From assembly GCF_058153355.1 (NCBI RefSeq), contig NZ_CM177019.1: a stretch of DNA of 64,000 nt, one strand, 5' to 3'. The notes below the pieces were generated by a model. It was not told the DNA's origin. It searched no databases and saw only the letters and a program-made list of their open reading frames with translations. A program made the translations under genes and the position numbers. Each line of letters begins with the position of its first letter. Position 1 is the stretch's first letter. This document shows, in pieces, positions 1 to 9,132 of the stretch.

Positions 1-1184
1 TTGTAACCCTGTCCTAAATCCTCTTTTTTCGATTGTGACGGAAAAATTCCAAAGTTGGTTTGACTTTTATACGTCAGCTGGAAGGCCTTACCCTGTTGTG
101 TTTCCAGCGTGATATTTTCACCTTCAGATAAACGTTCTTGTAGGCGAGTAAGTGCGCTATCCAACATTTCCTGCGCACCAGCATGACCAAAGGCGGCATC
201 CTCGCATATCTGTTTAAAAATACCTGCCTTTATTTCGTATTTTACATTACCGTCATCAGTAGTCTCAGCTCTTAAACCTTCAATAAACTCTTCATAACCA
301 AAGCTCTGATGAAAGGTGATAAAACGCACTCGATTATCTTTGATAAGCTGATCATAAATCTTTTTCAACTCGCGACGTTTTTCACTCTCATCCTTACCCT
401 CCTGCAGGGAGTAAGCGATCGGATCACAAATTTGTACAGCAAGCTCAATAGTACGATATGTTTTACCTGTACCTGGCGGGCCATAGAGAATTGTGTTTTT
501 AGGCAATGGCGAACTTATAACATCATCTTCTTGCTCATTTTCTTGTAAAGCACTTTCGCTTCCAACTAAACCGATAGCATTTTTATCCTGAATTTCATAC
601 GCATAGAGATGCCAAAGTGACATATTCAGCTCAATAGGGTCGATATCATCACCCAGCGCACGATTTAGCGTTTCTTTAAGATCAACATTGCGAGCCAGCC
701 ACTCCCGTTCTCCGGAAAGACCTAGCTGGAAATGGTTGTTGCAATAATTGTAGCAACTAAAAAAATTATTAACATTCACGACACTGCTAATTTTTGATGG
801 GTATATTGCTGCAAAAGCACGATTACAAAGAGCCCTATATACCTTATTTAATACTCCGTCCGCTTTAAGTTTGATAAGACGTTCAATGACCCGATTATAA
901 TTTTCTTGTGTACACTCTTCTGCTATCTGACGGGTGAGCGTTAGAAGGTCTTTTTGTGCATTTTCAAATTCAACCAATGACATCCCACCTTGCATCAGGC
1001 TGGAGACACCATTGTCACGTTCATACCATACCTGCCGAATCGTGGCTTCAGAAAAGTTTGGTTTTTCGGCCTGAATCTGTTCTACAAGCTCGCGGTAGTG
1101 TTTGCCCCAAACTGAATTGTATTGATTATTTTTTTCAATTTGAGCACGAAAGAAGGGGGCTAATGCTGATGAATCCTGAACCAT
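1..1184 (-). CDS. McrB-family AAA+ GTPase (restriction-system motor subunit homolog), N-terminal ~394 codons only; the 3' end runs off the window start
   Basis: Minus-strand reading frame opens at ATG (plus coords 1182-1184) and, as translated by hand, continues without stop to position 1. Contains a Walker A motif GPPGTGKT (around 459-482) and, further on, FHQSFGYEEFIEG, which resembles the McrB signature FHQSYSYEDFIQG. It is absent from the supplied ORF track, presumably because it is incomplete. Confidence 0.6.
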   Translation of the reverse strand, partial: MVQDSSALAPFFRAQIEKNNQYNSVWGKHYRELVEQIQAEKPNFSEATIRQVWYERDNGVSSLMQGGMSLVEFENAQKDLLTLTRQIAEECTQENYNRVIERLIKLKADGVLNKVYRALCNRAFAAIYPSKISSVVNVNNFFSCYNYCNNHFQLGLSGEREWLARNVDLKETLNRALGDDIDPIELNMSLWHLYAYEIQDKNAIGLVGSESALQENEQEDDVISSPLPKNTILYGPPGTGKTYRTIELAVQICDPIAYSLQEGKDESEKRRELKKIYDQLIKDNRVRFITFHQSFGYEEFIEGLRAETTDDGNVKYEIKAGIFKQICEDAAFGHAGAQEMLDSALTRLQERLSEGENITLETQQGKAFQLTYKSQTNFGIFPSQSKKEDLGQGY

Positions 1185-1542
1185 CTCTTAATCCAATATG
1201 TAGGGGGGAGGGAAATTGGGATAGCCTTATCTTATCGGATTAATCTCAAAAATGTTAAATTTTATGATAAAAAAAAACTTTCATCCTGAAATTACCTTCT
1301 GCCCTGGAGCCGCCACATTTATCTGATGACTTTGAACTGCAAAACGCATGGTGTTGGTGGTTCTCAGAGAAGGCCATAGCATTCTTTCAGACGTAAAATC
1401 GCTACTCGTTTTTCAACCTGTGTGCATTTTCTAGTTGCATAGGGAATCAACTGTTTTTCAGGTAGGTATTGTTTACAGTAAATGGATATGCCGAAATTCA
1501 GAGGGTTCCAGTAACGACATTTTGACAGCAAACATACGACAT

Positions 1543-2376
1543 TCATTTTGCTGATAACGCTGACGGATAGTGCTTCGCCACAATGTCATTCATCTTATCC
1601 ACCAGATCCAGTCGCTTGAATGTGATGTGTCCACTGCCTTTCTGGTAATAGCGGATGACAAATAAATCGTCATTAAATACCTGCTCATGCGGGTGAGCAC
1701 TAACGAAGTCCATAAACCGAATCGCAACATCATGCCGGTTATCGGGAATGGCCTTCCCATCCAGCAGATAGAACATCCGTTCCAGATCGGCAAGCTGATC
1801 TCGCCGCCAGCCCCAGTGCAGGCTGTAACCCCATCGGTCATGCTTCACCAGATTGTTAACGATAATCTTCTTACCGAAATAACAGGGATTATTGGTTTTG
1901 TAATCCCAGCTCAATCCCTTAAATACATTGATAATCCCACGTTCGAAAACGTCATGCTTATTGTGGTGGAGTTGTTCAAAGGTACTCAGGATGTTGGCTT
2001 CGCTAATCGCCGGGAGATCGCCCTCCTCCAGGTTCTTTGCCCACTGACTGCGGGCTTCGGCATCCATCAGAGTCAACATCCCGGACTTCAGCATGAGATC
2101 GCGCCAGATGCTGCGATCGATATTGCGGGTGATCGCCGACATCGCTTTGTCGGTTGGTTGCATCAGCCAGCAGTCAAAGGCATATCCATTACGCATTCCC
2201 CAGGTTCCAGCCACATCACCGCCAATACTGGATGTCAGACTGGAGATATCATCCAGTTTTTGGATTAGCGTCGCTATCAGCTTCAGTGCGCTATCACGTC
2301 CTGTGACGATACGCTCAATATTGGTCGAGCGAATTATCTCGTTGTGATCGGTTAAGACTTCAGCTTCTGTTTGCAT
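1543..2376 (-). CDS. Hypothetical protein, 277 aa, function unknown; lies between the McrB-like gene and the divergently transcribed hsdM
   Basis: Longest ORF in the interval and same strand as the McrB-like gene 358 bp downstream. I see no nucleotide-binding or methyltransferase motif. The plus-strand ORFs overlapping it (1687..2268, 2093..2347) look like antisense shadows. Confidence 0.45.
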   Translation of the reverse strand: MQTEAEVLTDHNEIIRSTNIERIVTGRDSALKLIATLIQKLDDISSLTSSIGGDVAGTWGMRNGYAFDCWLMQPTDKAMSAITRNIDRSIWRDLMLKSGMLTLMDAEARSQWAKNLEEGDLPAISEANILSTFEQLHHNKHDVFERGIINVFKGLSWDYKTNNPCYFGKKIIVNNLVKHDRWGYSLHWGWRRDQLADLERMFYLLDGKAIPDNRHDVAIRFMDFVSAHPHEQVFNDDLFVIRYYQKGSGHITFKRLDLVDKMNDIVAKHYPSALSAK

Positions 2377-2682
2377 AATCTTTCATCCGTAAAAAAATAC
2401 ACTCGCCGTTAGTAGCAGACGGATTATCCTCTGGTGAAAGATTGGGTAAATAATGAGATTGAAAATCGGGAAGGTGACTCGCAATAAATTATCTGATCAC
2501 CTACGGATGGACGATGGGCATATAAAATAGCCTCCTGACTCAAACGGTGAATGCTGAATAAGATGCACTAACAATCTGGTACTGAATCCCCTCCTCACCG
2601 TCATACAAATCTGAAAAACCAAAAAACTTCCGGTAAAATCCCGGCAAAAGCCGACGTTAAAAACACATTCAAAGGATAAAAA

Positions 2683-4239
2683 ATGACCAGTCTTCAGCAG
2701 CGCGCGGAGCTTCATCGCCAAATCTGGCAAATTGCTAACGATGTCAGAGGTTCGGTCGATGGATGGGATTTTAAGCAATACGTTCTGGGCGCGCTTTTCT
2801 ACCGTTTTATCAGCGAAAATTTTTCCAGCTATATTGAAGCCGGTGATGACAGCATCTGTTATGCGAAACTGGATGACAGCGTAATTACTGATGACATTAA
2901 AGACGATGCCATCAAAACCAAAGGCTACTTCATCTACCCAAGTCAGCTTTTCTGCAACGTAGCTGCGAAAGCAAATACCAATGACAGACTGAACGCAGAT
3001 TTAAACAGCATCTTCGTTGCTATCGAAAGTTCTGCTTACGGTTACCCTTCAGAAGCTGACATCAAAGGTTTGTTTGCTGATTTCGATACCACCAGTAACC
3101 GCCTGGGTAATACCGTTAAGGATAAAAATGCCCGCCTGGCCGCGGTTCTGAAAGGGGTTGAAGGGTTAAAGCTTGGCGACTTTAACGAACATCAGATTGA
3201 CCTGTTCGGCGATGCCTATGAGTTCCTGATTTCTAACTATGCGGCGAATGCCGGTAAGTCAGGCGGCGAGTTCTTTACACCGCAGCACGTCTCTAAGCTG
3301 ATTGCACAACTGGCTATGCACGGGCAGACCCACGTTAACAAAATCTACGACCCGGCAGCGGGTTCCGGTTCGCTGTTGTTGCAGGCTAAAAAGCAGTTTG
3401 ATGACCACATCATCGAAGAAGGTTTTTTTGGTCAGGAAATCAACCATACGACCTATAACCTGGCGCGTATGAACATGTTTTTGCACAACATCAACTACGA
3501 CAAGTTTGATATCAAGTTGGGCAATACGCTGACTGAGCCGCACTTCAGAGATGAAAAACCGTTTGACGCCATCGTATCTAACCCACCGTATTCGGTGAAA
3601 TGGATAGGCAGCGATGACCCGACGCTGATTAACGATGAACGTTTTGCCCCGGCTGGCGTCCTGGCCCCCAAATCAAAAGCTGACTTCGCCTTTGTACTAC
3701 ATGCGCTGAACTATCTTTCTGCCAAAGGTCGTGCTGCGATTGTCTGCTTCCCGGGTATTTTTTACCGTGGCGGCGCAGAGCAGAAAATCCGTCAGTATCT
3801 GGTTGATAATAACTATGTCGAAACCGTGATTTCACTGGCTCCGAACCTGTTCTTTGGCACCACCATTGCCGTCAATATTCTGGTGTTGTCTAAACATAAA
3901 ACCGATACCAAAGTTCAGTTTATTGACGCCAGCGAACTATTCAAAAAAGAGACTAACAACAACATTCTGACCGATGCCCATATCGAACAGATTATGCAGG
4001 TATTTGCCAGCAAGGAAGATGTTGCTCATCTGGCGAAATCTGTCGCGTTTGAGACCGTTGTCGCTAATGACTATAACCTGTCGGTAAGCAGCTATGTGGA
4101 AGCGAAAGATAACCGCGAAATTATCGATATCAGTGAGCTGAATGCTGAGCTGAAAACCACGGTCAGCAAAATCGACCAGTTGCGTAAAGATATTGATGCG
4201 ATTGTGGCTGAAATTGAAGGCTGCGAGGTGCAGAAATGA
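2683..4239 (+). CDS. hsdM: Type I restriction-modification system DNA methyltransferase subunit M (type IC-like)
   Basis: 518-aa ORF with an N6-adenine methyltransferase NPPY motif ([11 protein letters not shown]) and the AdoMet-binding region ([11 protein letters not shown]). RBS aaaggat sits upstream of the ATG at 2683. The stop overlaps the hsdS start (ATGA at 4236-4239). Confidence 0.9.
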
Positions 4240-5390
4240 ACGAGTTGAGTTATCTGGAAAAATTACTGGATGGGGTTGAGGTTGAGTGGTTGCCATTGGC
4301 TAAAGTTTGTCGTTTAATAAACGGGAGAGCATATAAGCAAGAAGAACTGCTTTCCAAAGGCAAATATCCAGTATTAAGAGTCGGTAATTTTTTTACTAAC
4401 CAAAATTGGTATTACTCAGATTTAGAATTAGATCAAGACAAGTATTGTGATAACGGTGACCTTTTATATGCTTGGTCCGCATCATTTGGTCCAAGAATTT
4501 GGCATGGGGGTAAATCTATTTACCATTATCACATATGGAAAGTGGTTCCAGATTCGAATCTTATTTGTAAACAGTTTCTATATTACTTGTTACAATGGGA
4601 TACTAAAGCACTTAAAGATGCACATAGCACTGGTTCTACTATGATGCACATCAGCAAAACTACAATTGAAAAAAGGTTAGTCCCCATCCCCTGCCCGGAT
4701 AATCCGGAAAAATCCCTTGCCATCCAGTCTGAAATCGTTCGGATTCTGGATAAATTTACTGCACTTACCGCTGAGCTTACCGCTGAGCTTAATATGCGAA
4801 AAAAACAGTACAACTACTATCTCGACCAGTTACTGAATCTTGAGGGTAGGGAAAATACTCGAGAAATGAGGATAGGTGATATTTATGATTTTCAGTATGG
4901 AACAGGCAATACAATTCCTAAATCTGGAGGGCAATATCCTGTTTATGGTAGCAACGGGATTGTAGGCTCCCATGACAAATATAACAGCGAAGACTCACCT
5001 GTTATTGGCCATATAGGTGCTTACGCAGGAATCGTTAACTGGGGCCAGGGTAAGCATTTTGTTACATACAACGGAGTTATTTGTAGGCACAAATCGAAGG
5101 AAGTTCTTCAAAAATACGCCTACTATTTATTACTTTTACAAGATTTCGGTTCAAAATCTAATAGTGCATCACAGCCTTTTGTTTCATATAACATATTAAA
5201 TGCTCCTATTGTTTTGGTTCCCCCTTTACAAGAGCAAGCTCGTATCGTCGCAATACTCGATAAATTCGACACCCTGACCAACTCCATCACCGAAGGTCTT
5301 CCGCGTGAAATCGAGTTGCGCCAGAAACAATACGAGTACTATCGTGATTTACTGTTCAGTTTCCCAAAACCTGAAACTCTCAGTAATTAA
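4236..5390 (+). CDS. hsdS: Type I restriction-modification system specificity subunit S (type IC-like, two target-recognition domains)
   Basis: 384-aa ORF translationally coupled to hsdM. It has two AT-rich variable regions separated by a conserved central region containing TAEL repeats, plus a conserved C-terminal region ([30 protein letters not shown]), as in EcoR124-type HsdS. Confidence 0.85.
4767..4790 (+). repeat. Two tandem copies of a 12-bp repeat ACCGCTGAGCTT (encoding TAEL-TAEL) in the central conserved region of hsdS
   Basis: Direct reading: accgctgagctt accgctgagctt at 4767-4790. In type IC HsdS, the copy number of this repeat is known to set the spacer length of the recognition sequence. 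Confidence 0.85.
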
Positions 5391-5511
5391 TTGACCATTA
5401 TTACAGACCGGACCATCTTAATATCCGGTCAGTATATAGACTATTTTTTACACGCCGGAAGTCACCATTAACCCCCTTCCGGCCCTTGCCAGACGGCACA
5501 AAGGATGCGCT

Positions 5512-8500
5512 ATGACTCATCAAACACACACCATTGCTGAATCCAATAACTTTATCGTTCTTGATAAGTACATCAAAGCTGAGCAAACAGGCGACAGCTA
5601 TCAGAGCGAATCGGACCTGGAACGTGAACTGATTCAGGACCTGCAAAATCAGGGCTATGAATTTATACCCGTAAAATCACAGTCAGCGATGCTGGCCAAC
5701 GTTCGGGAACAGCTTCAGAGCCTCAATGGTGTGGTGTTTAATGACAGCGAGTGGCGGCGTTTCACGGAGCAGTATCTGGATAACCCGAGCGATGGCATTC
5801 TGGATAAGACCCGTAAAATCCATATCGACTATATTTGCGACTTTATTTTTGATGACGAGCGACTTGAGAACATCTATTTGATAGATAAAAAGAATCTCAT
5901 GCGCAATAAGGTGCAGATTATCCAGCAGTTTGAACAGGCGGGTTCCCACTCTAACCGCTATGATGTCACGATCCTGATTAATGGCTTACCACTGGTACAA
6001 ATCGAACTGAAAAAGCGCGGCGTGGCGATTCGTGAGGCTTTCAACCAGATACATCGTTACAGTAAAGAGAGTTTTAACAGCGAAAATTCCCTGTTTAAGT
6101 ATCTGCAACTGTTTGTCATTTCTAACGGCACCGATACCCGTTACTTTGCCAACACCACAAAGCGCGATAAAAATAGTTTTGACTTCACCATGAACTGGGC
6201 GAAATCAGACAACACGCTGATTAAAGACCTCAAAGATTTTACCGCTACCTTTTTCCAGAAACATACTCTGCTTAATGTTCTGGTGAACTACAGCGTGTTC
6301 GATATTAGCCAGACGCTACTGGTGATGCGACCGTACCAGATTGCCGCCACCGAACGAATCTTATGGAAAATCAACAGCTCCTATAAAGCGAAAAACTGGT
6401 CTACCCCCGAAAGCGGTGGCTTTATCTGGCACACCACCGGTTCCGGTAAAACCCTGACCAGCTTTAAAGCTGCGCGTCTGGCAACAGAGCTGGACTTTAT
6501 TGATAAAGTCTTCTTCGTGGTCGACAGAAAAGACCTCGATTACCAGACCATGAAGGAATATCAGCGTTTTTCGCCAGATAGTGTTAACGGTTCGGAAAAT
6601 ACCGCAGGCCTGAAACGAAATCTGGATAAGGACGATAACAAAATTATCGTCACCACTATTCAGAAACTTAATAACCTGATGAAAGCAGAAAGCGACCTGC
6701 CTGTATACAATCAGCAAGTGGTGTTTATATTTGATGAATGTCACCGCAGCCAGTTTGGAGAAGCGCAGAAAAACCTGAAGAAGAAATTCAAACGCTATTA
6801 TCAGTTTGGTTTTACCGGCACACCTATTTTCCCGGAAAACGCTTTAGGCTCAGAAACGACCGCCAGCGTATTTGGTCGTGAATTGCATTCGTATGTGATT
6901 ACCGATGCGATTCGTGATGAAAAAGTGCTCAAATTCAAGGTGGACTATAACGATGTGCGGCCACAATTTAAGTCTTTAGAGACAGAAACCGACGAGAAAA
7001 AACTGAGTGCGGCTGAAAATCAGCAGGCGTTTCTTCATCCCATGCGTATACAGGAAATTACGCAATATATTCTGAATAACTTCCGCCAGAAGACCCACCG
7101 TACTTTCCCAGGTTCCAAAGGCTTTAATGCCATGCTGGCAGTGAGTAGCGTGGATGCCGCGAAAGCCTATTACGCGACGTTTAAACGGTTACAAGAGGAA
7201 GCCGCTAATAAATCTGCTACCTATAAACCACTACGTGTTGCGACAATCTTCTCCTTTGCCGCTAATGAAGAACAAAATGCCATTGGTGAAATTTCCGATG
7301 AAACTTTTGATACCAGCGCAATGGACAGCAGTGCTAAAGAGTTTCTCGACGCTGCAATTCGTGAATATAACAGCTATTTTAAAACTAACTTCAGTACCGA
7401 CAGTAACGGTTTTCAGAACTACTATCGTGATTTAGCCCAACGGGTTAAAAATCAGGATATCGATCTGTTAATTGTCGTTGGGATGTTTTTAACCGGCTTC
7501 GACGCTCCAACATTGAACACGCTATTCGTCGATAAAAACTTGCGTTTTCACGGCCTGATGCAGGCATTTTCCCGCACCAACCGCATTTATGACGCCACTA
7601 AAACCTTCGGTAACATCGTCACTTTTCGGGATCTGGAACGCTCAACCATTGATGCCATAACGCTGTTTGGTGATAAAAATACCAAAAATGTGGTGTTAGA
7701 AAAGAGTTATGCCGAGTATATGGAAGGCTTTACAGATGCTGCCACTGGTGAAGCTAAACGCGGCTTTATGGCAGTAGTTTCAGAACTGGAACAACGGTTC
7801 CCTGACCCTGCCAGTATTGAAAGTGAAAAAGAGAAGAAAGACTTCGTTAAACTGTTTGGTGAATACCTGCGCGCCGAGAACATCCTGCAAAACTATGATG
7901 AATTTGCCACGCTGAAAGCCCTGCAACAAATCGATCTTAGCGATCCTGTTGCGGTAGAAAAATTCAAAGCAGAACATTATGTGGATGATGAAAAGTTTGC
8001 TGAATTACAAACGATTCGTCTCCCTGCTGAACGTAAGATTCAGGATTATCGTTCGGCCTATAACGATATTCGTGACTGGCAGCGCCGCGAGAAAGAAGCT
8101 GACAAAAAAGAAAAATCAACCACTGACTGGGATGACGTGGTTTTTGAGGTCGATTTGCTGAAGTCTCAGGAAATAAACCTGGATTATATCCTTGGACTGA
8201 TTTTCGAACACAACAGACAAAACAAAGGTAAGGGCGAAATGACCGAAGAGGTCAAACGCTTAATTCGTTCGAGCCTTGGGAACCGTGCCAAAGAAGGCCT
8301 GGTGGTCGATTTTATTCAACAAACGAACCTGGATGATTTGCCGGATAAAGCCAGTATCATTGACGCGTTCTTTATCTTTGCTCAACGCGAACAGCAACGT
8401 GAAGCAGAAGCGTTGATTAAAGAAGAAAATCTCAATGAAGAAGCAGCGAAACGCTATATTCGCACGTCTTTAAAACGCGAATACGCCACCGAAAATGGCA

Positions 8501-8628
8501 CAGAATTAAACGAGACGTTACCAAAACTTAGTCCGTTAAACCCGCAATATAAAACGAAAAAACAGACGGTTTTCCAGAAGATCGTCGCGTTTATTGAGAA
8601 GTTTAAAGGTGTAGGCGGGCAGATATAA
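5512..8628 (+). CDS. hsdR: Type I restriction enzyme endonuclease/helicase subunit R (type IC-like, 1038 aa)
   Basis: 1038-aa ORF with SF2 helicase motifs (Walker A TTGSGKT, DEAH-like [10 protein letters not shown]). The length matches type IC HsdR such as EcoR124I as I recall it. A 121-bp gap after hsdS leaves room for its own promoter. Confidence 0.9.
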
Positions 8629-8852
8629 TGTATTAATCCGAACCTGATCTGGCAGATAGCTGTCAGATCAGGACTGAGCTAATACAAATTAATATCGAAC
8701 CGAAAATACCAACGCCTGTACCAACATTTTTCGTTTGCGATGGGTTGAAATTGGTTGGCTCTGAGAGAGTTAAAATAGCGAGAAAGATAGGTAACTAATG
8801 GATCCCAGACACAAAAAAAGCCGCCCTTGAGCGACTCGATTTGCATACGATG

Positions 8853-8937
8853 TGGTGCCGAAGGCCGGACTCGAACCGGCACGTATTTCTACGGTTGATT
8901 TTGAATCAACTGCGTCTACCGATTTCGCCACTTCGGC
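8853..8937 (-). tRNA. leuX: tRNA-Leu (anticodon CAA)
   Basis: The minus-strand sequence GCCGAAGTGGCGAAATCGGTAGACGCAGTTGATTCAAAATCAACCGTAGAAATACGTGCCGGTTCGAGTCCGGCCTTCGGCACCA has acceptor stem, D-loop, anticodon loop UUCAAAA (anticodon CAA), the long variable arm of a class II tRNA, T-loop GGTTCGAGTCC and 3' CCA. Confidence 0.92.
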
Positions 8938-9132
8938 ACTGAAGAGGTATGCGGAAAACGTTGTGGATTATACCTGTCGCACGCCACCATGCAAGCGCCA
9001 GCTTGCACCCACTTTGCTAAGTGCTGAAATTTTCAGCATTGCATACCGCGATGTGTAACCTTTGTCACACTCCAGGCACCCCGCCCTACCATGCTCTACA
9101 CTTCCCAGACAACACCAGAGAAGGACAAAAAT

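Follow-up and report, generated by a model that had tools for sequence, protein, structure and literature searches.

The TAEL repeat of a chromosomal EcoR124I-family specificity subunit in Escherichia coli: position, predicted role, and natural variation in unit number

The window analyzed here is a stretch of 64,000 nucleotides of Escherichia chromosome; over 25 kb, it matches many E. coli genomes at about 96.5% identity. It carries a type I restriction-modification operon with the gene order hsdM-hsdS-hsdR, all on the plus strand, in which hsdM and hsdS overlap by 4 nucleotides. The system immediately adjoins the tRNA gene leuX, beyond which lie ahr, yjgR, lptGF, pepA, holC, and valS. We describe a 12-bp tandem repeat in the center of hsdS, its predicted role in DNA recognition, and the variation of its unit number in nature. 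The features of the locus are as follows.

1543-2376, minus strand: DUF4942-domain gene, a recurrent upstream neighbor of chromosomal type IC operons in the leuX island
2683-4239, plus strand: hsdM, 518 aa, 514/518 identical to the EcoR124 M subunit
4236-5390, plus strand: hsdS, 384 aa, its start overlapping the hsdM stop (ATGA)
4704-4835, plus strand: central conserved helix of HsdS, aa 157-200, putative helix D1 of the coiled coil between the target recognition domains (TRDs), which holds the repeat (AlphaFold, match to 7bst_A, and invariant columns in 30 relatives)
4758-4766, plus strand: ACTGCACTT, coding for T-A-L, aa 175-177, present also in EcoR124I HsdS and called a degenerate third unit in the initial annotation
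4767-4790, plus strand: two exact 12-bp units ACCGCTGAGCTT, coding for TAEL-TAEL, HsdS aa 178-185, within a periodic tract at 4764-4791
5226-5354, plus strand: C-terminal conserved helix of HsdS, aa 331-373, putative helix D2 and inferred antiparallel partner, which carries a non-repeated counterpart motif (AlphaFold)
5512-8628, plus strand: hsdR, 1038 aa, about 97.6% identical to EcoR124I HsdR (PDB 2w00)
8853-8937, minus strand: tRNA-Leu (CAA), leuX, the anchor of the defense island that holds the system

The operon has close relatives among the best studied type I systems. In the comparison with solved structures, HsdM is 99.2% identical to the EcoR124 M subunit, and HsdR differs from EcoR124I HsdR by 24 mismatches across the 1010 aligned residues shown. 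PADLOC assigns each of the three subunits to type I, and NCBIfam models name M and R; no NCBIfam model matched HsdS. The EcoR124_C domain (PF12008) was found on an hsdR gene, cut by the end of its locus, that lies beside an identical hsdS in another record (L036). Gene order, HsdM, and HsdR thus bear out the assignment to type IC made in the initial annotation, and nothing in these comparisons speaks against it. Judged by its sequence, this is an EcoR124I-family (type IC) restriction-modification system with a pair of TRDs unlike that of EcoR124I, and the operon in the window is intact.

The genomic setting is a familiar one. The leuX gene anchors E. coli defense hotspot 37, in which about 4% of isolates carry a type IC system (2025 review, PMC12707154). 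Upstream of the operon, within window positions 1-2376, an McrB-family gene on the minus strand runs off the window start; the DUF4942 gene had no match in PADLOC or NCBIfam. In the closest complete genomes, the homologous hsdM of the leuX island is split by an IS3 element (L001, E. coli BE2-5, 4683-7500); the window hsdM is intact. A scan for promoters and terminators over positions 2300-9000 gave 14 candidates against 11.4 expected, which is chance level.

The repeat itself can be read directly. The unit ACCGCTGAGCTT stands twice in tandem, at 4767-4778 and 4779-4790, with 0 mismatches, and no further exact copy of it exists in the window. Tandem Repeats Finder reports one array at 4764-4791, with a period of 12, 2.3 copies, and 100% matches; these 28 nucleotides, CTTACCGCTGAGCTTACCGCTGAGCTTA, are the full extent of the perfect periodicity. 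Of six weak arrays in the 64-kb window, the one in hsdS alone has 100% matches. Elsewhere, a 24-bp unit is repeated twice (95% match) at 25108-25155, inside a minus-strand ORF of 555 aa (24538-26205) whose counterpart in E. coli BE2-5 is annotated as a frameshifted “DNA-binding protein”. The hsdS repeat is in frame with the 384-aa ORF and codes for T178-A-E-L-T-A-E-L185, directly preceded by F174-T-A-L177, so that the 12-bp tandem pair coding for TAEL-TAEL is exactly as first annotated. The additional proposal of a degenerate third unit stands in part: ACTGCACTT is present, but to call it a decayed unit is an interpretation, and the position is variable, with TAL, TAV, TEL, TAI, TTL, or TAH before the repeat among relatives. 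An antisense reading of the repeat was dropped because the ORF list of the window holds no minus-strand ORF of at least 80 aa across it.

Within HsdS, the repeat lies between the two TRDs. The subunit consists of an N-terminal conserved region, TRD1 (about aa 21-147), a central conserved region, TRD2 (about aa 201-330), and a C-terminal conserved region. It aligns to EcoR124I HsdS (7bst_A) in three blocks only (aa 1-20, about 148-200, and about 336-384), and the columns that are invariant among 30 relatives fall in the same N-terminal, central, and C-terminal regions. The match in the central block spans residues ~148-195, repeat included; the flanking TRDs do not align, and the only solved relative of TRD2 is 7eew_A (E = 1e-9). 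An AlphaFold model built from 30 relatives (mean pLDDT 82.7) contains a helix of 44 residues (157-200) that has TAELTAEL midway along it, and another of 43 residues (331-373). Both the alignment and the model locate the repeat in the inter-TRD spacer region, as the initial annotation had supposed. From the homologous EcoR124I HsdS and further S subunits of solved structure (PMC3874165), we infer that the two helices form an antiparallel coiled coil that would space the TRDs. Just past the repeat, in the same conserved helix, residue 196 (4821-4823, CTC) is Leu in the window HsdS and Arg in at least 90% of the 30 relatives; Leu196 is also found in a one-unit sibling, P0006, described below.

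The role of such repeats has been worked out in the EcoR124 systems. EcoR124I has two units and recognizes GAA N6 RTCG; EcoR124II has three and recognizes GAA N7 RTCG (Loenen et al. 2014, PMC3874165). Each TAEL amounts to just over one helical turn, and unit number is altered by unequal crossing-over (PMC3874165). Switching between EcoR124I and EcoR124II has been documented in the laboratory (PMC3874165). In hybrids of EcoR124I and EcoDXXI, the spacer shifts as predicted with unit number, independently of the TRDs (PMC3874165; also PMC7383803). The link from copy number to spacer length, and crossing-over as the means of change, had been invoked for the window from the start and accord with this published account (PMC3874165).

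Applied to the window, the mechanism would run as follows. The central helix would pair in antiparallel fashion with the C-terminal helix, and the coiled coil would fix both the distance and the rotation between TRD1 and TRD2. It is established in this family that a 12-bp unit contributes four residues and sets the TRDs about 1 bp further apart; two units give an N6 spacer, as in EcoR124I, and three units an N7 spacer, as in EcoR124II, EcoDXXI, and EcoPrrI. Since its TRDs are unlike those of EcoR124I, the half-sites of the window enzyme must differ too; the enzyme is predicted to recognize a bipartite site in which an N6 spacer separates half-sites other than GAA and RTCG. Units may be gained or lost by unequal crossing-over or by replication slippage across the 28 nucleotides of periodicity, and the reading frame would be kept. 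With one unit more or less, the spacer would become N7 or N5, and the specificity of both methylation and restriction would be a new one.

Comparison with characterized systems shows where the window allele fits. EcoR124I, a type IC system of plasmid R124, has the same gene order, an HsdM identical at 99% and an HsdR at about 97.6%, the same conserved regions of HsdS, and the same two units. It differs in both TRDs, which are unrelated in sequence to those of the window HsdS, in the length of HsdS (404 aa versus 384 aa), and in being plasmid-borne, whereas the window system is chromosomal, in the leuX island. EcoR124II (= EcoR124/3) belongs to the same family, has the same repeat unit, and is the documented product of one added unit (PMC3874165); it has three units versus two in the window allele. 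EcoDXXI and EcoPrrI, compared by description, are type IC like the window system and differ by their TRDs, three units (PMC3874165), and N7 spacers. In Neisseria gonorrhoeae, the type IC-like system NgoAV carries a four-residue repeat (LEAT/EATL) in central HsdS, whose number affects specificity (PMC6789123). NgoAV differs in genus and in the register and sequence of the repeat, and its specificity depends also on a downstream frameshift.

We surveyed unit number across 5,426 complete E. coli genomes, which were queried with synthetic central regions of 1, 2, 3, and 4 units, at E-value thresholds set to admit full-length, single-piece matches only. The counts in these genomes were as follows.

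1 unit: 2 records
2 units: 606 records in 586 genomes
3 units: 421 records in 410 genomes
4 units: 15 records
longer tracts: 3 records, two of them read directly as 5 units (L003) and 8 units (L009)

About 330 of the 1380 hsdS-matching records were left unclassed, their central regions being more divergent or disrupted. Functioning systems almost always have 2 or 3 units. The repeat also extends beyond E. coli: the exact two-unit DNA was found in 21 stretches of species-representative genomes, of which 13 have two units and 8 have three. Most come from Enterobacterales, others from Comamonas, Simplicispira, and further genera.

Alleles that have the same TRDs and a different number of units offer the most direct view of change in the tract. 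The closest such sibling of the window allele is P0006, found in 5 contigs; it is identical to the window HsdS at 341 of 348 positions over aa 1-348, with a single 4-aa gap at the repeat. Its DNA in one record (L002) holds one unit, ACCGCTAAGCTT, which codes for TAKL, E having been replaced by K. In L002, the loss of 1 nucleotide at window position 5278 puts the C-terminal conserved region out of frame, which is why the C-terminus of P0006 is unlike that of the window HsdS, and the start codon of hsdM is lost as well. Judging from these lesions, the L002 system is probably dead. Two further sibling series involve other alleles. The one-unit E. coli alleles L005 and L006, which have TRD2 in common with the window allele, equal the two-unit proteins P0117, P0085, P0119, and P0102 save for one substitution and a 4-aa gap; in L005 (NZ_AP021944.1, 993-2147), the operon with its single unit is annotated as intact. 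P0108, a two-unit protein present in at least 1000 contigs and with the same TRD1 as the window HsdS, has one-unit siblings in P0145 (7 contigs) and P0147 (2 contigs) and three-unit siblings in P0121 and P0122 (2 contigs in all). Since alleles within a series differ in unit number, these comparisons indicate that gain and loss of units occur in nature, at low frequency. A search for siblings of L013, an apparently intact allele with 4 units, turned up its twin plasmid alone.

The window and L002 (Logan SRR22135610) differ by about 4% in hsdM and hsdR, and by only 3 substitutions across 4250-5750. Such comparison suggests that the hsdS allele is a mobile cassette, which recombination in the conserved flanks has carried from one type IC backbone to another.

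What, then, is the tract at this locus? We consider it very probable that it is the canonical TAEL tract, with two units, of an intact EcoR124I-family HsdS in the leuX defense island of an E. coli chromosome. That the duplication might be a chance match or an artefact of assembly is hardly credible. Random sequence of 64 kb would be expected to hold about 0.004 exact 12-mer tandem duplications, and about 1.5e-5 periodic tracts of 28 nucleotides; hundreds of independent E. coli records, and the 21 stretches from other species, have the 24-nucleotide repeat at the corresponding position, in frame, and the amino acids it encodes agree with EcoR124I HsdS, whose structure has been solved by experiment. 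In other bacteria, ON/OFF phase variation does arise from repeats within hsdS (PMC7383803), which brings up a simple-sequence contingency locus that would shift the hsdS frame. Here such a switch is refuted by unit length, 12 bp being a multiple of three, and all natural variants (1, 2, 3, 4, 5, and 8 units) stay in frame through the tract; we give this reading next to no weight.

A less remote alternative, though still an improbable one, is that the tract is an inherited structural spacer, fixed at two units in this lineage and not switching at any relevant frequency. Among the matches listed from a collection of 5.8 billion proteins, all seven full-length relatives with both TRDs of the window have two units. 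Two units are also the commonest state in E. coli, and variants of the widespread P0108 are rare, with 9 contigs at one unit and 2 contigs at three. The further observation that 118 of 120 listed homologues have exactly two units was rejected as proof of fixation, because homologues with other unit numbers lose about 10 bits and drop under a crowded cut-off; the listing is informative on unit number for its top ~10 matches only, those in which both TRDs are shared. Fixation is countered by three independent sibling series that differ by whole units, one of them from the window allele itself, by the span of E. coli tracts from 1 to 8 units, and by the laboratory switching of EcoR124I and EcoR124II (PMC3874165). 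We therefore keep to the canonical two-unit tract, able in principle to vary. The initial annotation had gone further, in describing the locus as poised for a spontaneous switch of specificity. That description draws qualitative support from natural siblings whose only difference is the number of units. Its sense of readiness fits the data less well: two units are the usual state, no three-unit sibling of the window allele is among the matches listed from the same protein collection, and its sole one-unit sibling belongs to a decayed system. Misalignment would have just 24-28 nucleotides of homology to work with.

Long tracts present a different picture. Among the loci with at least 4 units that were inspected (L003, L004, and L007-L013), 8 of 9 are disrupted, by IS1, IS3, or IS5 in or next to hsdS or by a frameshifted hsdM; the sole intact-looking long-tract locus is on plasmid pDAM_1 (L013, 1035-2201) and has 4 units. 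By comparison, hsdM and hsdS are annotated as intact in all 8 loci sampled evenly from the 2- and 3-unit lists. The association of long tracts with disruption gives p = 4e-4 in Fisher's exact test, or 3e-3 with four related loci collapsed, in small samples of phylogenetically non-independent loci; it is a lead, not a result. One tentative reading, which we rate as somewhat doubtful, is that selection polices the length of the TAEL tract, such that working systems keep 2 or 3 units and tracts of 4 or more are nearly confined to broken ones. Under that reading, long tracts might either reflect drift after the death of the system or produce a promiscuous, self-damaging enzyme that selects for its own inactivation. 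If length is policed in this way, a change from 2 to 3 units in the window would be tolerated, and larger changes would not. L005, with 1 unit, and L013, with 4, are candidates for natural specificities with N5 and N8 spacers.

Work on EcoR124 and EcoR124/3 in the late 1980s made the repeat, with its position and mechanism, a matter of textbook knowledge. The feature is known already in every respect claimed. A protein identical to the window HsdS (P0001) is present at NCBI (EGO8352954.1 / HFG3510747.1), in E. coli draft genomes with the same neighbors. The TRD combination of the window is absent from the complete E. coli genomes and from PLSDB plasmids, where each TRD was found separately.

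The window adds one more specificity allele to the type IC family, with a new TRD pair and a predicted N6 spacer, and already in public databases. A one-base-pair shift in the specificity of this system is possible in principle. The wider value of the analysis is in how unit number is distributed among complete E. coli genomes, in siblings that differ by units only, and in the excess of long tracts in broken systems.
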